A stretch of 11,484 bases of DNA, from the IMG/VR virus record IMGVR_UViG_2778261514_000009; one strand, given 5' to 3'. This document shows positions 1 through 10,556 of this stretch, one piece after another. The notes under the pieces were generated by a model that was not told where the DNA came from, did no database searches, and saw only the letters and a program-made list of their open reading frames with translations. Each line of letters starts with the position of its first letter. The first letter of the stretch is position 1. The position numbers were made by a program, and so were the translations under genes. This DNA is from a virus (lineage: Duplodnaviria > Heunggongvirae > Uroviricota > Caudoviricetes).

Positions 1-1218
1 ATGAACAAACTGAGCGATACCTTGCTAAGGAAACTTCATGGTAAGCCAGCGGAGAAAAACACGTTTTATAGTGATGGCGGAAACCTGAGCGTGAAATATT
101 TAACATCAGGGAAATTGACCTGGTATTTCACATACAGGGCCGGAACGGGAAGGGAGACACGACCCGAACGCATTAAGCTGGGAAGTTATCCTGATCTGAG
201 CCTGAAAGCAGCCAGGGAAAAAGCCGCACAGTGTCGCACATGGCTGGCTGAGGGGAAAAATCCACGTCATGAGATGAATTACACCGTACAGGAAGCGTTA
301 AAGCCCGTAACGGTTGGCGATGCGCTCACCTACTGGCTTGAGTATTACGTAAAGGAAAACCGCGTGGATTATATCGCCCTGAAAAGGCGACTTAATAATC
401 ACGTAATACAGCAGATTGGTGCTATGCCGCTGGATAAATGCGAGCTACGGCACTGGCTGGCCTGTTTTGACCAGGTGGCAAAGCGAACGCCTGTTACTGC
501 CGGATTCGTGCTACAGGCGTGCAAACAGGCGCTTAAGTTCTGCCGTAGGCGGCGCTATGCAATCAGCAACGTTCTGGACGATCTGAACGTGGCGGACGTT
601 GGGAAAAAACCGGATATAAGCGAACGTGTCTTAAGTAACAAAGAACTTGGCGAATTATTGCAGGCACTGGACAAAAAAATATTCTCCCCTTACTACGTCG
701 CGTTAATCCGCCTCCTGATTGTCTTCGGAGCCAGAACGGTAGAACTGAGGTTATCGGAGATCGGGGAGTGGGATTTTACGGAAATGCTATGGACCGTTCC
801 GAAGGAGCACAGCAAAACGAAGGTCGCAATATTCCGGCCCATACCGGAAGCGATCCTGCCGTTCGTCACGCAGCTGGTGGAGCAGAACAGGCACACGGGC
901 TTATTGCTGGGGGAAGTGAAACAGGAGGCCAGCGTATCGCAGTATGGAAGATTAGCGCACAGGAGGCTTAATCATCCTCACTGGTCACTACATGACATCC
1001 GGCGCACCTTTACAACGATGCTGAACGATTTAGGCGTGGATCCTCACGTCGTGGAGCAGCTTACAGGCCACCAGATGCCAGGAATGCAGCGAGTTTATAA
1101 TCATTCCCGTTATCTGGATGCTAAACGCAATGCGCTGGATATGTGGACGGAGCGGTTAGGGATACTGGCGGGAACACATGAAAACGTAACCACGCTACCA
1201 GTAGCCAGAAGAAAATAA
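1..1218 (+). CDS. int: Tyrosine recombinase, P4-type phage integrase (405 aa; ORF begins at window position 1)
   Basis: N-terminal arm-binding-like region (YSDGGNLSVKY...WYFTYR) and C-terminal catalytic region (HDIRRTF...LTGHQ...VYNHSRYLD) typical of P4-family integrases; followed by an AlpA gene as in P4-like and PICI elements. Confidence 0.9.
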   Translation: MNKLSDTLLRKLHGKPAEKNTFYSDGGNLSVKYLTSGKLTWYFTYRAGTGRETRPERIKLGSYPDLSLKAAREKAAQCRTWLAEGKNPRHEMNYTVQEALKPVTVGDALTYWLEYYVKENRVDYIALKRRLNNHVIQQIGAMPLDKCELRHWLACFDQVAKRTPVTAGFVLQACKQALKFCRRRRYAISNVLDDLNVADVGKKPDISERVLSNKELGELLQALDKKIFSPYYVALIRLLIVFGARTVELRLSEIGEWDFTEMLWTVPKEHSKTKVAIFRPIPEAILPFVTQLVEQNRHTGLLLGEVKQEASVSQYGRLAHRRLNHPHWSLHDIRRTFTTMLNDLGVDPHVVEQLTGHQMPGMQRVYNHSRYLDAKRNALDMWTERLGILAGTHENVTTLPVARRK

Positions 1219-1582: not shown

Positions 1583-1771
1583 GTGTTAAGCACTGATCGG
1601 TTTATACGTGAAAAAGAATGCGAAAAACTAACCGGCCTTAGCCGTACGTGTCGCTACCGCCTGGAAAAGGCCGGACAATTCCCATCACGTCGTAAACTTG
1701 GCGGTCGTTCCGTTGGCTGGTCTTTATCCGAGGTTCTGGCCTGGAAGGATAGCTGCAAGGCAGTTCATTAA
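1583..1771 (+). CDS. alpA: AlpA-family transcriptional regulator / excisionase-like HTH protein (62 aa, GTG start)
   Basis: Pattern TGLSRTCRYRLEKAGQFP...LGGRSVGWSLSEVLAW matches the AlpA (Phage_AlpA) family; SD AAGGGGG lies 6 nt upstream of GTG at 1583. Confidence 0.85.
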   Translation: MLSTDRFIREKECEKLTGLSRTCRYRLEKAGQFPSRRKLGGRSVGWSLSEVLAWKDSCKAVH

Positions 1772-3640: not shown

Positions 3641-3940
3641 ATGAAACTTAAATATTCTGGCTTAACTGCCAGTGGCAACACTCACCCTAAATTTACGCGC
3701 GGTGATATTTACCGCGACCAGTACGGCGGCACGGTAATGATTAAGGGCGTGGAAGAACGGCGCGTAACCTACCGCCGTGAAGGCTACGAATATGACTGCG
3801 TGATGCCTGTTTATCAGTTCCGGCGTGATTTTTCTCTGGTACAGGCAGCGCCCCGCAGTAAACCAACCAGCAGGGAGAAAGCACGCGCCAATATTCAGGA
3901 AATAAAAAAGATACTTAACGTATTCAGGGGTAAAAAATGA
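3641..3940 (+). CDS. Hypothetical protein (99 aa) immediately upstream of and overlapping the primase gene
   Basis: ATG at 3641 with GGAG upstream; its stop overlaps the primase start (ATGA at 3937-3940). Confidence 0.5.
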   Translation: MKLKYSGLTASGNTHPKFTRGDIYRDQYGGTVMIKGVEERRVTYRREGYEYDCVMPVYQFRRDFSLVQAAPRSKPTSREKARANIQEIKKILNVFRGKK

Positions 3941-5691
3941 AACTGGCACCGAACGTAAAACAGCAGTCACGCGGCATAAAACACAAAGAAACAGAAGTCA
4001 TTATTTTTGCGGGTAGTGATGCCTGGTCACACGCGAAACAATGGCAGGAACATGATGCGCGTATGGCCGGAGATAATGAGCCTCCTGTGTGGCTTGGGGA
4101 GCAGCAGCTATCCGAACTGGATAATCTGCAAATTGTGCCGGAAGGCCGAAAATCAGCACGCATATACAGGGCCGGATATCTTGCGCCAGTAATGATAAAG
4201 GCGATTGGCCAGAAGCTGGCGGCGGCAGGCGTACAGGATGCAAATTTTTACCCTGATGGTATGCACGGTCAGAAGGTGGAGAACTGGCGCGAATATCTGG
4301 CCCGTGAGCGCCAGAATCTTTCTGATGGTCTGGTCATTGAGCTTCCGGTAAAGCAAAAGGCGCAACTTTCGCAGATGGCGGACAGTGAGCGCGCGCAGCT
4401 GCTTGCCGATCGCTTTGATGGCGTTTGCGTACATCCTGAAAGTGAAATCGTTCACGTATGGCGCGGCGGGGTATGGTGTCCGGTCAGCACAATGGAACTT
4501 AGCCGCGAAATGGTGGCGATCTATTCAGAGCACAGGGCCACTTTCAGCAAGCGCGTAATCAATAACGCCGTGGAAGCGTTAAAAGTTATTGCCGAACCAA
4601 TGGGCGAGCCGTCCGGCGATTTGCTGCCGTTCGCCAATGGTGCGCTTGACCTGAAAACGGGGGAATTTTCCCCGCACACGCCGGAGAACTGGATCACCAC
4701 GCACAACGGCATTGAGTACACGCCACCAGCACCAGGGGAGAACATCCGCGATAACGCGCCAAACTTTCATAAATGGCTTGAGCACGCAGCCGGAAAAGAC
4801 CCGCGCAAGATGATGCGTATATGTGCCGCGCTGTACATGATTATGGCGAACCGGTACGACTGGCAGATGTTTATTGAGGCCACCGGAGATGGCGGGAGCG
4901 GTAAAAGTACATTCACGCACATAGCCAGCCTTCTGGCAGGGAAACAGAACACGGTAAGCGCTGAAATGACGTCGCTTGATGATGCTGGTGGACGTGCGCA
5001 GGTTGTCGGGAGTCGTCTTATCGTCCTGGCTGACCAGCCGAAATATACAGGCGAAGGAACGGGCATCAAGAAAATCACGGGCGGTGACCCCGTGGAAATT
5101 AACCCGAAATACGAAAAGCGTTTCACGGCTGTAATCAGGGCGGTGGTGCTGGCGACCAACAATAACCCGATGATATTCACCGAACGGGCCGGAGGTGTGG
5201 CACGTCGTCGCGTGATTTTCCGTTTCGACAATATCGTCAGTGAGGCCGACAAAGACAGGGAGCTACCGGAAAAGATCGCGGCTGAAATCCCTGTCATTAT
5301 CCGCCGATTGCTGGCGAACTTTACCGACCCTGAGAAGGCACGGGCTTTACTACTGGAACAGCGTGACGGTGATGAAGCTCTGGCAATAAAGCAACAGACG
5401 GATCCGGTTATTGAGTTTTGCCAGTTCCTGAATTTTCTGGAGGAAGCACGCGGCCTGATGATGGGCGGCGGTGGCGATTCAGTGAAGTACACGACCAGAA
5501 ACAGCCTTTACCGCGTCTATCTGGCGTTTATGGCGTACGCAGGCAGGAGCAAACCGCTAAACGTAAATGACTTTGGCAAGGCTATGAAGCCAGCCGCGAA
5601 AGTTTACGGACATGAATATATTACGCGGAAAGTTAAGGGAGTAACGCAGACTAACGCAATAACAACAGACGAGTGCGACGCGTTTTTATAA
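3937..5691 (+). CDS. pri: Replication initiation primase/helicase (D5_N plus SF3-type P-loop NTPase; P4-family primase C-terminal region), 584 aa
   Basis: Walker A GDGGSGKST, the downstream hydrophobic strand with acidic residue (LIVLADQP) and the characteristic ...VEINPKYEKRFTAVIRAVVLATNNNP...RRRVIFRF block; followed directly by an iteron region, as in PICI pri-rep/ori modules. Confidence 0.88.
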   Translation: MKLAPNVKQQSRGIKHKETEVIIFAGSDAWSHAKQWQEHDARMAGDNEPPVWLGEQQLSELDNLQIVPEGRKSARIYRAGYLAPVMIKAIGQKLAAAGVQDANFYPDGMHGQKVENWREYLARERQNLSDGLVIELPVKQKAQLSQMADSERAQLLADRFDGVCVHPESEIVHVWRGGVWCPVSTMELSREMVAIYSEHRATFSKRVINNAVEALKVIAEPMGEPSGDLLPFANGALDLKTGEFSPHTPENWITTHNGIEYTPPAPGENIRDNAPNFHKWLEHAAGKDPRKMMRICAALYMIMANRYDWQMFIEATGDGGSGKSTFTHIASLLAGKQNTVSAEMTSLDDAGGRAQVVGSRLIVLADQPKYTGEGTGIKKITGGDPVEINPKYEKRFTAVIRAVVLATNNNPMIFTERAGGVARRRVIFRFDNIVSEADKDRELPEKIAAEIPVIIRRLLANFTDPEKARALLLEQRDGDEALAIKQQTDPVIEFCQFLNFLEEARGLMMGGGGDSVKYTTRNSLYRVYLAFMAYAGRSKPLNVNDFGKAMKPAAKVYGHEYITRKVKGVTQTNAITTDECDAFL

Positions 5692-5699
5692 TTTTTTGT

Positions 5700-5935
5700 A
5701 ATTGCTGTCTACCCTGTCTACCTGAGTAAAGAAAAATACATTTAATTCAGTGCATTAAGTTAGGTAGATAGCCTTTTTTTACTGTCTACCCACTATCTAC
5801 CCTCTCTACCTGATTTTACCTGAATCAGACAGGGAGGTAGACACGGGGTAGATAGTGGATAAAAGCACTCTACCCCGCTGAAAGCCGTGCCATTACTGGC
5901 ATGAGGGCCACTAAGGTAGATAAGGTAGACAAGGG
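5700..5935. repeat. Putative replication origin: about 11 iterons of GGTAGA(C/T)A in two inverted clusters around an AT-rich spacer
   Basis: Reverse-orientation copies (..GTCTACC..) at 5707, 5716, 5784, 5796, 5804, 5869; forward copies GGTAGATA/GGTAGACA at 5763, 5836, 5847, 5915, 5924; AT-rich stretch 5724-5760; sits immediately 3' of the primase gene. Confidence 0.6.
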
Positions 5936-5979
5936 GAGGCACAACTCAAAACTTTTTAAACGAGGGGGTAAAAATAAAT

Positions 5980-6258
5980 ATGCACACTTCAGGGAAATTT
6001 AATAAATCACTCAAAAAACGCAGAGACAGAACAGAACCGAAATATCGCGCGTTAGACATGACAGAGCACGCTTTAAAGGTGGCAATCAGAACGATAGACC
6101 GCCACGCGGGGGAAGGATACGCGAAAGCACATCCCGACCTGATAAGCGCATTCATGACCACGACGGCGGCAAATTTTGCCACGCTGACAGAGCGGGAGAT
6201 TGCCGAAGCGGAACAGGTAACAACAATCAACGTTAAAACCGGAGAGGTGGAATCATGA
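5980..6258 (+). CDS. Hypothetical protein (92 aa)
   Basis: ATG at 5980 with GAGGGGG upstream; stop overlaps the SSB start (ATGA at 6255); no family recognised. Confidence 0.45.
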   Translation: MHTSGKFNKSLKKRRDRTEPKYRALDMTEHALKVAIRTIDRHAGEGYAKAHPDLISAFMTTTAANFATLTEREIAEAEQVTTINVKTGEVES

Positions 6259-6665
6259 CAGCACAGATAGCCGCTTACGGGCGGCTGGTGGACGACCCGC
6301 AGGTAAAACAGACCAGCAAGGGCACACCGATGACGCTGGCGCGTATGGCGGTCCCCCTTCCGTGCAGCCAGGCAGATGACGGAACGGCGACGATGTGGTT
6401 ATCCGTCCTGGCATTTGGCAGACAGGCCGAAGCACTGGAAAGGCACCGCAAGGGTGAACTCCTGAGCGTGGCGGGTAACATGCAGATCAGCCAGTGGACT
6501 GGGCAGAACGGAGAAACGCGGCAGGGTTATCAGGTTATTGCAGACAGCGTAATCAGTGCCCGTGCGGCACGTCCTGGCGGGAACAGACGCAAAACCACAG
6601 GCACACAGGGTAATCAGCCACCAGCGGGAGGCGATGACCCTTACGGTGATGATATTCCGTTCTGA
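6255..6665 (+). CDS. ssb: Single-stranded DNA-binding protein (SSB homologue, 136 aa)
   Basis: OB-fold-like N-terminus, Gly/Pro/Gln-rich linker and C-terminal tail ...DDPYGDDIPF matching the conserved SSB acidic tip (E. coli SSB ends ...DFDDDIPF); SD GGAGAGGTGG. Confidence 0.85.
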   Translation: MTAQIAAYGRLVDDPQVKQTSKGTPMTLARMAVPLPCSQADDGTATMWLSVLAFGRQAEALERHRKGELLSVAGNMQISQWTGQNGETRQGYQVIADSVISARAARPGGNRRKTTGTQGNQPPAGGDDPYGDDIPF

Positions 6666-6675
6666 GGGGGTGAGG

Positions 6676-6948
6676 ATGGTACATGACCGCATAGCGGAGG
6701 AACTCGAGGCAAAAGGCTTTTACCGGAGGGCGGCGGCACGATGGGGTGAAGTCATGCAACTGGTGGAGACAGACAAGGAACGGCATCACATCACGATGCG
6801 ACGGCTGGAATGTTCAAGGAAGGCACAGAGGGCACCGGAGCCGCCGGATAATTTCGGAGACCTGAAAAAGGCAGTCGATCGCACTTATGCCGAAATGGGT
6901 ATAGATGGTGCTGGTGATGAAATATGGCGCAATTACCAGGACAGCTAA
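6676..6948 (+). CDS. PerC-family transcriptional activator-like protein (90 aa)
   Basis: N-terminal block MVHDRIAEELEAKGFYRRAAARWGEVM resembles the PerC/Pch family signature as I recall it; SD GAGGGGG 5 nt upstream of ATG 6676; the track's longer 6556 start overlaps ssb out of frame. Confidence 0.55.
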   Translation: MVHDRIAEELEAKGFYRRAAARWGEVMQLVETDKERHHITMRRLECSRKAQRAPEPPDNFGDLKKAVDRTYAEMGIDGAGDEIWRNYQDS

Positions 6949-6954
6949 TCAAAC

Positions 6955-6978
6955 AGCCGGAGAAATACGGCTTTTTTT
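6955..6978 (+). terminator. Rho-independent terminator after the PerC-like gene
   Basis: AGCCG-gagaaata-CGGCT followed by a T7 run, 7 nt after the stop codon. Confidence 0.5.
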
Positions 6979-7074
6979 GCACCAGTTGAAACGGTATGGC
7001 GCATTACCGGGTTTTCGTCACGGTCAGGCATAGTTACTATCTGAAACAAACAGACACAACAGAGGAAAAAAACA

Positions 7075-7299
7075 ATGCCGATGAAATTTGATGAGATATT
7101 AAAACAGCGTGATAAATACCATGCTGACAACATGGAGACGATGAGCATCAATGATTACCGCGCATTCCTGGAGACGGGCGCACTGATTGAAAAGGATCAG
7201 CATGGTTTTGTGAGATGTGCTCTATCCGGTGAAATGCTGGCGGTAAATCCTGAACAGATAGATGCATTGATAGAATTTCTGAAAGAGATCAGAGACTGA
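7075..7299 (+). CDS. Hypothetical protein (74 aa)
   Basis: Strong SD (GAGGAAAAAAACA-ATG); flanked by terminators on both sides, so it looks like a monocistronic unit; no family recognised. Confidence 0.5.
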   Translation: MPMKFDEILKQRDKYHADNMETMSINDYRAFLETGALIEKDQHGFVRCALSGEMLAVNPEQIDALIEFLKEIRD

Positions 7300-7318
7300 G
7301 CCAGCACACAGCACACAT

Positions 7319-7389
7319 AGCCGGAGCAATCCGGCTTTTTTGCGCCCAAAAAAAGCCCGATAAGGTCAGAGGGTTCTTATCGGGCTTTT
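7319..7389 (+). terminator. Tandem terminators: AGCCGGA-gcaa-TCCGGCT plus T-run, then a 12-bp-stem hairpin flanked by A-run and T-run (bidirectional)
   Basis: Read directly at 7319-7341 and 7347-7389. Confidence 0.6.
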
Positions 7390-7439
7390 GCATATGAGGT
7401 TTTTGGATGCACTGGCGTTCGTGATCGGGATAATCATTT

Positions 7440-7517
7440 CATAATTTGCAACATAACTCAATATCATTGCATAAAATGCAATTCTGATTATAATCAGGAC
7501 TGGATAAACATCCAGTT
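7440..7517 (+). promoter_or_regulatory. Capsid-operon promoter region with three palindromes and a TTGCAT-16-TATAAT promoter
   Basis: TTGCATaaaATGCAA (7467-7481), perfect 14-bp palindrome CTGATTATAATCAG (7484-7497) overlapping the -10 TATAAT (7489-7494), and ACTGGATaaacATCCAGT (7500-7517). Confidence 0.4.
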
Positions 7518-7550
7518 ATGATTTTTTTAGTCGAAGAGGAATTTCTTACT

Positions 7551-7757
7551 ATGGCTGAAGAGAAAAAAGGCGGTGTTTCGGTGTACATAAGCCCCGAAAT
7601 CGTGGAGGTGCTCAAGCAGCGCCACAAAAAAAACTATGAAGCTGGCGTTGCGGCTGGACTGGATCCGCTGATGACGCCGGAGCCGTCGATAGGTTCACTT
7701 GTGCGATCTTATTTACTTGCGGCGCTTGGGATGCACAAAAATTATGGGGGCGAATAA
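7551..7757 (+). CDS. Hypothetical small protein (68 aa) coupled to the major capsid gene
   Basis: ATG 7551 with GAGGAA upstream (the track's 7518 start lacks an SD); its stop overlaps the capsid gene start (TAATG). Confidence 0.5.
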   Translation: MAEEKKGGVSVYISPEIVEVLKQRHKKNYEAGVAAGLDPLMTPEPSIGSLVRSYLLAALGMHKNYGGE

Positions 7758-8812
7758 TGGCAGTCAAAGCAATAGCACTTAACACACACCAGCTTTTCGC
7801 GTACCTGAATCGCGAGGATATTGCGGAATTTAAATTTAGTCCGCTGTTTACCGCGCTGTTTTTCCCGAACGTGGCGACATTCAACACGCAGGACATCATG
7901 TTAGATAACCTGGATATTGAAGAAGTCACTATGTCGGCGTTTTGTTCGCCTATGGTTGGCAGCCAGGTTCAGCGCGATAAAGGGTACGAAACCAGCATTA
8001 TCCGCCCTGGCTACATGAAGCCAAAACACGAAATCGATCCATTAAAAACAATAATGCGCATGGCTGGAGAAGATCCGGCACAGCTTAACGATCCTACCTA
8101 CCGCCGTATGCGCCTGATTACTGGCAACATGCGCCGCCAGATAAATGCCATTAAGGCACGCGTTGAATGGCTGGCGGTGAATGCGGTAACGACCGGAAAA
8201 AACATCATTGAGGGCGAAGGCATAGAACGCTATGAAATCGACTGGAAGATACCGGAAAAAAACATCATAGAGCAGGCCGACGGTAAAAAATGGTCTGAGC
8301 AGGATAAAGACATACACGACCCAATATATGACATTGAACTATACGCAGATCAGGCAGGTTGCCCCGCCAACGTCATGATTATGGGCGTTGATGTATGGCG
8401 CATGTTACGCAGCTTTAAAAAATTCCGTGAACTGTACGATCTCTCCCGTGGTTCAGAATCCGCCGCAGAGCTGGCATGTAAAAACCTGGGCGAAGTGGTG
8501 AGCTTTAAAGGCTATCTTGGTGATCTGGCCCTTATCGTCTATTCCGGCAAATACACTGACAGCGACGGCACAGAAAAATATTTCCTTGAGCCTGATTTGC
8601 TTGTCCTGGGCAACACCAACAATAAAGGGCTGGTGGCCTATGGTGCGATTATGGATCAGGACGCAGTAAGAACGGGGGCAACGCAAAACATGTACTACCC
8701 GAAAAACTGGATTGAGGACGGAGATCCGGCGATTGAGTACGTGCAGACGCACAGCGCACCGCAGCCGGTTCCGGCAGATATTCGCAAATTTGTTACTGTC
8801 AAAATTGCTTAA
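7757..8812 (+). CDS. Major capsid protein, lambda gpE family (351 aa)
   Basis: Alignable along its length with lambda gpE as recalled: FKFSPLF, PGYMKPKHEIDP, EDPAQLNDPTYRRMR, WSEQDKDIHDP..DIELYA, VSFKGYLGDLALIVYSGKY, LVLGNTNNKGLVAYGAIMD, YYPKNWIEDGDPAIEY..HSAP. Confidence 0.9.
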   Translation: MAVKAIALNTHQLFAYLNREDIAEFKFSPLFTALFFPNVATFNTQDIMLDNLDIEEVTMSAFCSPMVGSQVQRDKGYETSIIRPGYMKPKHEIDPLKTIMRMAGEDPAQLNDPTYRRMRLITGNMRRQINAIKARVEWLAVNAVTTGKNIIEGEGIERYEIDWKIPEKNIIEQADGKKWSEQDKDIHDPIYDIELYADQAGCPANVMIMGVDVWRMLRSFKKFRELYDLSRGSESAAELACKNLGEVVSFKGYLGDLALIVYSGKYTDSDGTEKYFLEPDLLVLGNTNNKGLVAYGAIMDQDAVRTGATQNMYYPKNWIEDGDPAIEYVQTHSAPQPVPADIRKFVTVKIA

Positions 8813-8823
8813 CGGGGGATTCT

Positions 8824-9159
8824 ATGGACACTCCATACATTGAGTTATTTGCAGGCAGTCAGCAGGTCGCCACGACGCTGGTACATTTTGCCGCTGATGC
8901 TGGCGTTATTCAGGAATTTACCCCGCTGATGCTGGCGGACAATGGCGAGTTTAAGCCGTGGGATGGTCAGGAATCTGGCAAGGCTGTTTATCTGACTTCG
9001 TATCCTGTGGACACGTCAAAGCAGAAATCAGCACAGTGTTACAAGACGGGGATATTCAATATTGCCGCCGTTAACTGGCCTGAGAGCGTCGACACCGATG
9101 CGAAAAAATGCGCCGCCTTTGCGGGTTCCGGCGTATCCGTTCAGCCGCTGGCCCGATAA
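8824..9159 (+). CDS. Head decoration protein, lambda gpD-like (111 aa)
   Basis: Core matches lambda gpD as recalled (TPLMLADNGEFKPWDG vs TPLMLDTSSRKLVAWDG; CYKTGIFNIAAVNWPE vs FYKSGTFRYEDVLWPE; KKCAAFAGSGVSV vs KKRTAFAGTAISIV); SD GGGGG. Confidence 0.75.
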   Translation: MDTPYIELFAGSQQVATTLVHFAADAGVIQEFTPLMLADNGEFKPWDGQESGKAVYLTSYPVDTSKQKSAQCYKTGIFNIAAVNWPESVDTDAKKCAAFAGSGVSVQPLAR

Positions 9160-9171
9160 GCAGGGGGAACG

Positions 9172-9585
9172 ATGGCAACGAATGAAAGCATCATGACGCT
9201 ACCGCTGGCGAGTAAATTTAAAGCCGAAGCGCGGGCAATGGCTGACAGAGGTTTATCAACCTATGAGGCCGTATATCAACTAAACAAACTGGAAGAGCAG
9301 GACAAGCCGCGCGCTGATGCGATTATGGCGCTTCATGAGCATAAAGACTATCAGCCGCTGTTACGTGCAATGGCAAACGTGCCATGTATTAGCGTCGATA
9401 ATGCTCGTGAAATCCTGAACATGACCATAGAGCAGGAGCGCCCAAAGGTTGCACCAGAGCTTACCGCAGCCTTTGAAAACTTTATGGACATGCACAGCCC
9501 GCAAGCCGTATCAGCTGGCATGGCATACGATGGCAGAAACCAGGGCGATGACGGCGACATCGATCGCATACTGAAAACCATCTGA
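9172..9585 (+). CDS. Hypothetical protein (137 aa), last gene of the capsid operon
   Basis: SD AGGGGGAA 4 nt upstream; followed by a terminator; no family recognised. Confidence 0.5.
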   Translation: MATNESIMTLPLASKFKAEARAMADRGLSTYEAVYQLNKLEEQDKPRADAIMALHEHKDYQPLLRAMANVPCISVDNAREILNMTIEQERPKVAPELTAAFENFMDMHSPQAVSAGMAYDGRNQGDDGDIDRILKTI

Positions 9586-9589
9586 GACA

Positions 9590-9614
9590 AGGCCGGAGAA
9601 ATCCGGCTTTTTTT
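9590..9614 (+). terminator. Rho-independent terminator (GCCGGA-gaaa-TCCGGC plus T7) abutting cosQ
   Basis: Read directly; same hairpin family as the terminators at 6955 and 7319. Confidence 0.6.
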
Positions 9615-9790
9615 ACGGGTCCTTTCCGGCATATGGACCCGTTACGGGGCGGCGACCTCGCGGTTTTTCGCTATTTATGAGCCTTTTCAGGGGGGGGGTG
9701 GTGGTTTTGTTGTTTGCTCTATCTTTATGAATGAAAAGGGAAAGATGCAAACAATACACCAACCTGAAGCAGTAATTAAGTTGGTGTATT
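9615..9790 (+). other. Lambda-type cos site (copy A): cosQ-like ACGGGTCCTTTCCGG, cosN with 12-nt cohesive end GGGCGGCGACCT (9647-9658), then a divergent cosB-like region
   Basis: ACGGGTCCTTTCCGG-N11-GTTACGGGGCGGCGACCTCGCGGTTTTTCGCTATTTATGA matches the phage lambda cos junction as recalled, with the same cosQ-cosN spacing; downstream sequence departs from lambda cosB and carries a G9 run and the inverted repeat ATACACCAAC...GTTGGTGTAT. Confidence 0.7.
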
Positions 9791-9791
9791 A

Positions 9792-10334
9792 ATGAAATCG
9801 CACCTGATGAACAAAAAAAACATGGCGAAAAGCTGCCGTGTAAGTGCGACAGCGTTCGACAAGTGGGGAGTGACTCCCGTTGAACGTAAAGGCCGTGAGG
9901 CGTTTTACGATGTTGCCAGCGTGATAGACAATAGGGTTAACAATGCAATTAGCCAGCTTACAAACGACAAAGGCGATATTGATGATGATGAACTCTTACG
10001 AGTCAGGATCAGATTACTGACAGCACAGGCGGAGGCGCAGGAACTTAAAAACGAGCGCGATCGCGGTGACGTGATTGATACTGAGTTTTGCCTGTACGCG
10101 CTTTCAAAGCTGGCGAGTCAGATTTCATCAATCATGGACAGCCTCCCGCTTACTATGCAAAGGAGCTTCCCACAGATTACCCACGCCATGCTGGATAGGC
10201 TTAAAAGGGAAGTGGTTAAAGCCTGTAATGCCAGTGCCAGAGTTGCCGACAACCTCCCACAGATACTGGCTGATTACTTGAAAGAAACAACCGGAAACGT
10301 ACCGGAAAAGTTGCTACAGAAGAAAGGCGAGTAA
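9792..10334 (+). CDS. terS: Terminase small subunit, lambda Nu1 family (180 aa; start possibly at 9807)
   Basis: C-terminal two-thirds aligns with lambda Nu1 as recalled (RLLTAQAEAQELKNERD / LTRAQADAQELKNARD; FCLYALSKLASQISSIMDSLPL / FCTFVLSRIAGEIASILDGLPL; LKREVVKACN / LKRDIIKAMN); N-terminus NKKN... parallels Nu1 MEVNKKQ... HTH region; lies directly downstream of cos as in lambda. Confidence 0.8.
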   Translation: MKSHLMNKKNMAKSCRVSATAFDKWGVTPVERKGREAFYDVASVIDNRVNNAISQLTNDKGDIDDDELLRVRIRLLTAQAEAQELKNERDRGDVIDTEFCLYALSKLASQISSIMDSLPLTMQRSFPQITHAMLDRLKREVVKACNASARVADNLPQILADYLKETTGNVPEKLLQKKGE

Positions 10335-10339
10335 CAGAC

Positions 10340-10556
10340 GCGCAATTATTGAACAAAACTGAGAAACGACATGAAAGCGTCATAAATCGCCATTTTAGAT
10401 GATTACCGTGTCGTTTCTTTTTATTGTGTATCTATTTAAAAACAAATAGTTATGTTCGAGAAGTACCGACATGCTTTTTCCAGAAAAATTTTCATAAACA
10501 GATAAAAACCGCGAGGTCGCCGCCCCGTAACGGGCCATAATTCCAGGAAGGACCCG
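10340..10556 (-). other. Second, inverted cos module (copy B): cosQ-like, cosN (GGGCGGCGACCT on minus strand at 10514-10525) and a lambda-like cosB with I1-like and R-like elements
   Basis: Reverse complement of 10500-10556 reads CGGGTCCTTCCTGGAATTATGGCCCGTTACGGGGCGGCGACCTCGCGGTTTTTATCTGTTTATGAAAATTTTTCTGG, close to copy A and to the lambda left end; further along, CGAACATAACTATTTGTTTTTAAATA resembles the lambda I1 region; inverted CGTTTCT elements at 10363-10372 and 10409-10418. Confidence 0.6.

Follow-up and report, generated by a model that had tools for sequence, protein, structure and literature searches.

A putative control module of phased dyads, promoter and terminator-like hairpin preceding the capsid operon of an EcCICFT073-family island

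We analyzed the DNA preceding the capsid genes in a phage-inducible chromosomal island (PICI) represented by the IMG/VR virus record IMGVR_UViG_2778261514_000009 (the whole stretch of 11,484 nucleotides is referred to as the window). An earlier note on this DNA described three distinct palindromes (pal1, pal2 and pal3; Table 1) stacked on the promoter of the capsid operon and proposed that they are bound by one or more dimeric regulators, possibly a late activator of the helper phage or the PerC-like or AlpA proteins of the island. Comparison with related islands leads to a different partitioning of the region. The region almost certainly serves as promoter and control region for the capsid operon, and we see about an even chance that positions 7430-7530 form a control module of this late capsid/packaging operon, made up of a pair of operator-like dyads (O1 and O2), a promoter and an embedded terminator (T3).

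The palindrome cluster itself is real. An exhaustive scan for palindromes with loops of up to 5 nt and arms of 7 bp or more found just 10 in the whole window, three of them inside 51 bp at the capsid-operon promoter, 34 nt upstream of the ATG (7551) of the 68-residue open reading frame (ORF) that opens the operon. Three palindromes inside 60 bp were seen in none of 300 dinucleotide-preserving shuffles of the whole window, and when the 159-bp AT-rich intergenic region was shuffled 5000 times, three palindromes never arose; the cluster is thus not a product of chance. All three palindromes lie where they had been described, including the perfect 14-bp one with TATAAT inside, although the arms of pal1 are 7 bp long, one pair more than had been written. 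Absent from the earlier note were a 19-nt direct repeat, an extended stem of pal3 and two strong upstream terminators (T1 and T2).

Homologous regions were gathered by four routes, namely annotated E. coli genomes, DNA patterns in IMG/VR, a DNA pattern in metagenomes and homologs of the 68-residue protein. T2 served as the anchor for fetching 84 loci. The protein route is free of any DNA pattern, and it yielded Salmonella islands at the fis site (L267 and L269) as well as Enterobacter islands (L263 and L265). The combined set holds about 70 distinct sequences (71 in the footprint) from E. coli, Salmonella and Enterobacter.

The strongest evidence for an operator pair is the geometry of the region in Enterobacter. 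The fis-site islands L263 and L265 carry two dyads, ATTGCGTTTAATGCAAT and ATTGCATTTAGATCAAC, with 13 bp between them and starts 30 bp apart, together with TTGCAT-16-TATGAA. The first gene after the replication module encodes a 65-residue homolog (43-46% identical) of the 68-residue protein, and a tail-spike gene follows. Therefore, the conserved core consists of two phased dyads, a promoter and this small gene. In the window, the dyads fall within the 19-nt direct repeat (7433-7451 and 7463-7481, offset 30 bp). O1 and O2 are two 17-bp copies of a shared motif, ATTkC-N7-GCAAy, and O2 starts exactly 30 bp after O1 in all lineages; no further copy of the O1 motif was found elsewhere in the window. 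O1 is the most invariant stretch across the 71 distinct sequences. It is present in Salmonella and, as the perfect dyad D1, in Enterobacter. In O2, which coincides with pal1, the core TTGC..AAAATGCAA is invariant and the conserved extent is only ATTGC-N7-GCAAT. Because the innermost pair of O2 is noncomplementary in 20 of 29 distinct sequences and two-sided changes do not occur among them, what is conserved in pal1 seems to be its sequence and not its pairing. The idea of regulator-binding palindromes thus holds in part: pal1 is operator-like, its core and a second dyad being conserved across three genera, whereas three distinct sites are not what the comparison points to.

When one mismatch is allowed, ATTGC-N7-GCAAT has three more sites in the window (2166, 6537 and 7757), all inside coding regions, the last one exactly at the capsid start codon. 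The four matches compare with 0.33 expected from shuffles (maximum 3). Two of the three coding-region matches are kept in CFT073. In contrast to O1 and O2, these matches have GC-rich spacers.

The comparison supports the promoter proposed in the earlier note. Its predicted -10 hexamer, the perfect sigma-70 consensus, is changed in just 2 of about 70 distinct sequences. The TTGC-16 bp-TATAAT spacing is kept in every lineage examined, the window and six others (CFT073, three Salmonella lineages, and Enterobacter, where TATGAA stands at an equal distance from TTGCAT). The only upstream alternative returned by a promoter scan, TTCATA-18-TATCAT, was discarded as its -10 is not conserved.

The promoter block is under constraint of its own, since in the Salmonella locus L215 its identity to the window is 79.6%, compared with only 62-71% for the adjacent genes, and nothing upstream can be aligned. 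The 68-residue protein of this locus is 55% identical to that of the window. Across the footprint of 71 distinct sequences, the invariant blocks are O1, TTGC, AAAATGCAA, TGATTATAATCA, CTGGAT, CATCCAGT and GATTTTTT. No relative of the block was found among 50,697 phage records, the metagenome scan for the block added no lineage, an Rfam search with the region gave no match, a scan of the genome collection with the capsid protein gave no confirmed relative, and the hits of a 15-base DNA pattern in the same collection were all chance matches in unrelated phyla. A natural recombinant suggests that the block is portable. In E. coli JNEC-KY176 (locus L003, 6091-6160), a capsid-forming island carries an EcCICFT073-type block with O1, O2 and TATAAT. 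The junction, ACTGG|TGCCAGG, lies at the predicted transcription start (about +1), and the usual leader of capsid-forming islands follows. Such a junction was present in 1 of the 353 genomes having that leader.

Pal3 has a different character. It makes up the upper 7 bp of the 14-bp T3 stem, which is directly followed by seven T and the 5' arm of which starts within the -10 hexamer. T3 folds with an energy of -13.4 kcal/mol in the window and, in relatives, of -15 to -21.8 kcal/mol, values comparable to those of T1 (-12.1 kcal/mol, conserved in E. coli relatives) and T2 (-21.7 kcal/mol, invariant in E. coli relatives). The stem is perfect in the consensus of relatives. Pairing holds in 95% of the cells of 29 distinct sequences, with three pairs changed on both sides (7 cells) and 13 G·U cells; this level of covariation was reached in none of 500 shuffles. 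Four compensations appear to be independent: T-A to C-G, T-A to G-C twice, and C-G to T-A. They include TA to CC opposite GG in L128, A to C opposite G in L137, T/A to C/G in the L138 group and C/G to T/A in the L144 group. The loop is variable, and a run of at least five T is retained in all E. coli and Salmonella lineages. T3 thus has the hallmarks of an intrinsic terminator, a stable hairpin with U5-U7 and pairing kept in evolution. Since the longer stem with its U-tract carries compensatory substitutions, we take pal3 to be most probably the top of a terminator-like hairpin and not, as had been proposed, a separate regulator site. By comparison of lineages, T3 is outside the conserved core, as the Enterobacter islands and the L003 recombinant have the promoter and both dyads and lack the hairpin.

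Pal2 is probably a composite, or by-product, of the -10 hexamer, the hairpin base AATCA and a mirrored TGATT, with the conserved core TGATTATAATCA. Of the 29 distinct sequences, 11 have A-T as the outer pair of pal2, 9 have C-G and 9 leave it unpaired; all four combinations occur, and no pairing change is two-sided. The Salmonella locus L269 has AAATCTTA (AAATCTTATAATCAT) in place of the left arm but keeps both the -10 and the hairpin. An operator at pal2 therefore finds no support. The arrangement singled out earlier as unusual, TATAAT within a palindrome, is indeed present; the explanation is that the -10 and the 5' arm of T3 overlap.

Taken together, these features are consistent with the following mechanism. 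Transcription from a sigma-70 promoter, TTGCAT-16 bp-TATAAT, would initiate about 7501-7502. O1 and O2, 30 bp or about three helical turns apart, would be occupied by a small oligomeric DNA-binding protein that controls initiation; as O2 covers the -35 and the spacer, the effect would most simply be repression. The product of the first gene, the 68-residue ORF, could act at O1/O2 as an autoregulator of the ribbon-helix-helix (RHH) type. RNA arriving from upstream would hold the full 14-bp T3 stem and terminate there. As the 5' arm of T3 begins inside TATAAT, the RNA of the promoter itself, starting about 7 nt past the -10, would keep no more than 4-7 bp at the top of the stem (-3 to -7.5 kcal/mol) and largely read into the capsid genes. 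With the full stem present only in upstream RNA, the hairpin would insulate the operon, limiting its response to its own promoter and operators.

The main rival of such an insulator is promoter-proximal attenuation, in which the promoter is constitutive, its own RNA stops about 25 nt on at the pal3 hairpin and U-rich tract, and an antiterminator of the helper or the island, which would load at the promoter as lambda Q and Pseudomonas AlpA do, allows read-through only after helper induction. We consider this improbable, though less so than the other alternatives. It would explain a perfect -10 with a terminator-like site immediately after it, and the silence of capsid genes in the uninduced state does require some block. 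Both Pseudomonas AlpA and lambda Q work through a binding element that lies between the -35 and -10 and a terminator close by, and one Pseudomonas terminator starts merely 26 bp past the transcription start (PMC7969949, PMC9371919). In addition, the spacer ATTGCATAAAAT matches ATTGAATAAAAT of the lambda PR' spacer at 11 of 12 positions. However, this 12-mer lies 7 bp farther from the -10 than in lambda, a mis-spacing for which we rejected it as a Q binding element. The Pseudomonas AlpA element GGGACG is absent, and the -10-like pause element is not conserved, the corresponding hexamers varying among TATGAT, TCTGAT, TGTGAT and GATGAT. The AlpA of the island is a 62-residue PF05930 protein, whereas Pseudomonas AlpA is longer, different and contacts DNA at residues 128-142 in a C-terminal helix-turn-helix. 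Initiation at 7499-7502 leaves a stem of just 4-7 bp (-3.2 to -7.5 kcal/mol) that ends 6 nt before the T-run, and the compensatory changes fall in the lower stem, which the transcripts of this promoter lack. The loss of the hairpin, but not of the promoter and dyads, in Enterobacter and L003 also speaks against attenuation, as does the lack of relatives in phage genomes.

Slightly less probable still is the scheme of the earlier note, in which a dimeric regulator (the PerC-like protein, AlpA or a late activator of the helper) binds each of three separate operators. All three inverted repeats are perfect with 7-bp arms, the island does carry PerC-family and AlpA genes, and AlpA activates genes of the related EcCICFT073 (PMC6092414). 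Conservation of TGAT at 7485-7488 also has no other explanation. Yet the proposed regulators do not follow the block. Of 100 non-identical islands bearing the block, 55 encode PerC no more than 1.5 kb upstream of it and 45 do not. Among the 42 loci whose upstream sequence is long enough, 20 have an AlpA of at least 90% identity, and in 21 none is detectable at the thresholds applied; altogether AlpA is undetectable or a different allele in 22, the block being essentially constant. The fact that no phage record has a similar site argues likewise against the helper-phage activator. The fate of the palindromes outside the window adds to this, with the left arm of pal2 lost in L269, pal3 continuing into the U-tract hairpin, and both pal2 and pal3 absent from Enterobacter.

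Candidate AlpA sites may instead be located in the int-alpA intergenic region (1273-1310), which has four 10-bp-phased G[CG]AACAA repeats (GTGCAACAATGAGCAACAATGTGGAACAACCACGAACAAG). These repeats were not found at the capsid promoter of the window, nor is there a copy of the O1/O2 motif near alpA. The number of 7-mers common to the two regions, 18, does not exceed what shuffling gives (11.7 on average, with 18 reached in 53 of 500 shuffles). The reverse complement of 19 nt of the repeats stands directly upstream of the capsid gene of the EDL933 island (L223, 1422-1450), suggesting that the two types of islands control their capsid operons differently.

The gene that does accompany the block belongs to the family of the 68-residue ORF. 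It is found downstream of the block in 130 of 132 loci and is always the first gene, whatever the cargo. This linkage in cis, together with the inconstancy of PerC and AlpA and the absence of a phage relative, makes the 68-residue protein the best candidate binder of the dyads, as an RHH-type autoregulator. We treat this as a lead, with about a one-in-three probability. Its N-terminus, GVSVYISPEIVEVLK, has the strand-then-helix order of the RHH fold. Pfam comparisons gave RHH_1 (E = 0.15) and BrnA_antitoxin (E = 0.017), each with 2 of 21 family members and both below threshold; no significant match to an RHH sequence family was obtained either in Pfam or with hhalign against CopG (probability 0.7%). 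The AlphaFold2 model (pLDDT 78) has TraM DNA-binding domains as its best structural neighbors. A sequence search among solved structures returned nothing, and a search of protein representatives gave only 16 relatives without a bridge to any named family. The signals agree, and the assignment of the RHH fold is weak.

Another unlikely alternative, ranking somewhat below the three-operator scheme, is a chromosomal factor of Enterobacteriaceae acting at O1/O2, such as CytR (half-sites TGCAA/TTGCA), which would link capsid expression to host physiology. It would account for dyads that are identical over three genera, among islands with differing modules for int, alpA, rep and perC. A cluster of TTGCA/TGCAA pentamers lies at 7388, 7446-7447, 7467 and 7477, and the CytR consensus includes TGCAA-N2-3-TTGCA, TTGCAA and the octamers GTTGCATT/AATGCAAC (PMC3454398). 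Here, however, the half-sites are reversed (TTGCA-N5-TGCAA), with a spacing unlike that of described CytR operators, and the TGTGA/TCACA core of the CRP site that CytR requires within 5 bp is absent; on these grounds we rejected a CytR/CRP operator. Moreover, the strict linkage of the dyads to the 68-residue gene family favors a binder encoded in cis. None of the boxes of LexA, Fur, sigma-54, IHF, Fis, lambda CII (TTGC-N6-TTGC) and HipB fits when compared by eye. In particular, the LexA SOS box CTG-N10-CAG is absent, the window having CTG-N8-CAG and most relatives ATG...CAT.

We give very little weight to a leader or small RNA with alternative pairings, started upstream of 7466 (CATAAT at 7440-7445 is a possible -10) and either containing segments like those of a classical attenuator (1, 7466-7472; 2, 7476-7490; 3, 7491-7505; 4, 7510-7523; with 1:2 as pal1, 2:3 as extended pal2 and 3:4 as the terminator) or ending at T3 after 55-75 nt: the palindromes do chain (7476-7490/7491-7505 are 80% and 7492-7505/7510-7523 are 86% complementary) and the covariation demands an RNA that includes 7492-7498, but no conserved upstream promoter was found, the pairings of pal1 and pal2 show no two-sided changes, the terminator dominates the fold, Rfam has no match, and a leader peptide with a ribosome-binding site is absent.

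Several observations weigh against the module of operator pair, promoter and embedded terminator that we prefer. The predicted -35, separated from the -10 by a 16-bp spacer, has just 3 of 6 consensus bases; this put the promoter below the threshold of a generic promoter scan, so that it was not called. Template-switch (quasi-palindrome) mutation can yield compensatory-looking changes without selection, and the changes in T3 can therefore be neutral. T3 also appears redundant with T1 and T2 about 100 bp upstream, 11 of 29 sequences have a G·A mismatch at one position of its stem, and its upper stem is broken in 4. The conserved TGAT at 7485-7488, present in most sequences, is left unexplained. 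The two main alleles of the 68-residue ORF are just 68% identical, while the dyads are unchanged. Finally, the variation was drawn solely from closely related Enterobacteriaceae, and many changes are inherited rather than independent.

Table 1. Features of the capsid-operon control region and other parts of the window
Feature	Position	Strand	Basis or description
Palindrome 1 (pal1), ATTGCATaaaATGCAAT	7466-7482	.	Sequence and exhaustive palindrome scan
Palindrome 2 (pal2), CTGATTATAATCAG, perfect 14-mer containing TATAAT 7489-7494	7484-7497	.	Sequence and exhaustive scan
Palindrome 3 (pal3), ACTGGATaaacATCCAGT	7499-7516	.	Sequence and exhaustive scan
O1, upstream operator-like dyad ATTTC-N7-GCAAC, center about -57	7436-7452	.	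Part of 19-nt direct repeat
O2 (= pal1), operator-like dyad ATTGC-N7-GCAAT overlapping the -35, center about -27	7466-7482	.	
Predicted -35 hexamer TTGCAT	7467-7472	+	TTG fits consensus; 16 bp from -10
Predicted -10 hexamer TATAAT	7489-7494	+	Perfect consensus
T3, terminator-like hairpin	7492-7528	+	14-bp stem 7492-7505/7510-7523, 4-nt loop, U-tract 7522-7528
T1, putative intrinsic terminator, end of upstream replication/accessory operon	7319-7341	+	Stem AGCCGGA/TCCGGCT, then six T
T2, putative intrinsic terminator, 14-nt-arm hairpin, A-run before and T-run after	7349-7393	+	Inverted repeat, 100% complementary
68-residue ORF (phrog_3255), first gene of operon, after 250-bp gap	7551-7757	+	
Operon cargo: lambda E-like capsid, D-like decoration, Nu3-like scaffold, Nu1-like small terminase	7757-10334	+	Pfam and PHROGs
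Tyrosine integrase	1-1218	+	Pfam/PHROGs
AlpA-family protein, 62 residues (PF05930)	1583-1771	+	Pfam/PHROGs
D5-type primase	3937-5691	+	Pfam/PHROGs
SSB, then PerC-family protein	between D5-type primase and 250-bp gap	+	Pfam/PHROGs
PerC-family ORF	6676-6948		Pfam

The leader past T3 may provide translational control. A hairpin predicted at 7526-7559 (+) pairs both the Shine-Dalgarno GAGG (7536-7539) and the start codon of the 68-residue ORF; it is part of the minimum-free-energy fold of 7499-7560 (z-score -3.2). The Salmonella leader differs in sequence, and an AGGU-ACCU pairing is still possible there.

The gene order, established by Pfam and PHROGs searches, runs on the + strand throughout the window (Table 1) and shows what characterizes an EcCICFT073-type PICI: int, alpA, primase/rep and a packaging module on one strand, at a dedicated site. 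The interval 7300-7560 is matched in 562 of 5426 complete E. coli genomes, with 100% identity in many O157:H7 strains and 89.7% in CFT073, and the CFT073 copy is located at roxA-phoQ, the integration site of the window island. On the basis of these matches, the window is an island of the EcCICFT073 family. In this family AlpA turns on its own promoter as well as induction; the capsid-operon promoter is not covered (PMC6092414, PMC6739421, PMC10111431). The 137-residue ORF at 9172-9585 matches the C-terminal part of the phrog_53 head-maturation protease (positions 495-567 of 583, E = 1.7e-10) and is probably an Nu3-like scaffold, so that the island would encode homologs of capsid, decoration and scaffold proteins. 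The PerC-family ORF has a weak match, below cut-off, to ANR (AraC negative regulator; NF033650, E = 3e-4), echoing a suggestion made earlier for EcCIMP1_025 (PMC11773190).

In EDL933 (L226, NZ_CP008957.1 1680329-1694760), roxA-phoQ is occupied by the capsid-forming EcCIEDL933, whereas other O157:H7 strains, e.g. PV15-279 (L001), have a window-type island there. Thus, two island types alternate at one attachment site within a single serotype. The sole start-site data set that turned up, from Cappable-seq, is for EDL933 and hence for a strain with the other island type at roxA-phoQ. The Enterobacter islands L262-L266 (about 5001-8600) are PICIs beside fis/dusB, in which the late operon headed by the 68-residue-family gene has a tail-spike (Tail_spike_N) or lambda tail-I-like gene in place of capsid genes; these satellites appear to carry a receptor-binding protein of their own. 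A 72-nt inverted repeat (9616-9687/10485-10556, 82% complementary) flanks the Nu1-like small-terminase gene (9792-10334) of the window. Each arm contains the exact lambda cosN 12-mer GGGCGGCGACCT, at 9647-9658 (+) and 10514-10525 (-), and the annotation of locus L006 puts the terminase gene on the strand opposite to the capsid genes. Therefore, the terminase segment may be invertible or recombined, and the island may have two oppositely oriented cos sites.

The closest known systems each share some of the features of the block. As in autoregulated RHH operons (P22 Arc/Mnt, CopG, type II antitoxins), a small first gene follows the promoter, a dyad covers the -35 and spacer, and two sites lie on one helix face; the pentamers are 12 bp apart, like the TraM GANTC pairs in sbmA (PMC3159463). 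Unlike RHH proteins, the 68-residue protein would have an insertion of about 15 residues between two helices, and the cargo is capsid/packaging or tail-spike genes instead of a toxin or replication gene. The staphylococcal packaging operon, SaPI operon I, is reported to be repressed by LexA (Ubeda et al. 2007). A LexA box is absent here, and the host phylum and the sequences differ, the regulator probably too. Operon I is alike in being a satellite capsid/packaging operon with a dedicated promoter and operator, apart from the replication module (cited in PMC6739421). The lambda PR'-qut-tR' and Pseudomonas PalpB-ABE-tB modules resemble the block in their strong -10, a protein site between the -35 and -10, a close downstream terminator and control of late or lysis genes. 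They differ from it in the spacing of the binding element and in having a conserved sigma-dependent pause; in the block, moreover, the 5' arm of the terminator overlaps the -10, leaving its own RNA without most of the stem, and there is no homology to phage late regions. The region upstream of the EcCIEDL933 capsid gene likewise follows ssb, perC and T1 in an island at the roxA-phoQ site but is without O1, O2, TATAAT and the hairpin. It has instead three GTTGTTC repeats, identical in reverse to the int-alpA repeats of the window, which suggests that its capsid control is different, possibly of the AlpA type. Overall, the parts are of known kinds; the searchable literature describes neither their combination nor the candidate regulator family.

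Individually, the promoter, operators and terminator are ordinary. How Gram-negative PICIs switch on packaging and capsid genes is, nevertheless, undescribed in searchable papers, which treat only AlpA and its own promoter. The analysis offers a map of about 100 bp, conservation across genera and a named candidate regulator. The block also marks an exchange point for cargo modules, the L003 recombinant being joined exactly at the predicted start, and it could be of use in PICI-based delivery vehicles, where expression of the packaging module needs control. It is tempting, if distinctly tentative, to view the block as a hitherto undescribed late switch of Gram-negative PICIs in several genera, in which the phrog_3255 protein, from a small family without known function that heads the cargo operon, would bind two phased dyads over its own promoter and the embedded terminator would seal plug-in cargo of capsid, terminase or tail-spike genes from the AlpA-driven replication operon. 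If this is true, when and how much satellite capsid is made would be decided by the phrog_3255 protein, and not by AlpA or PerC.

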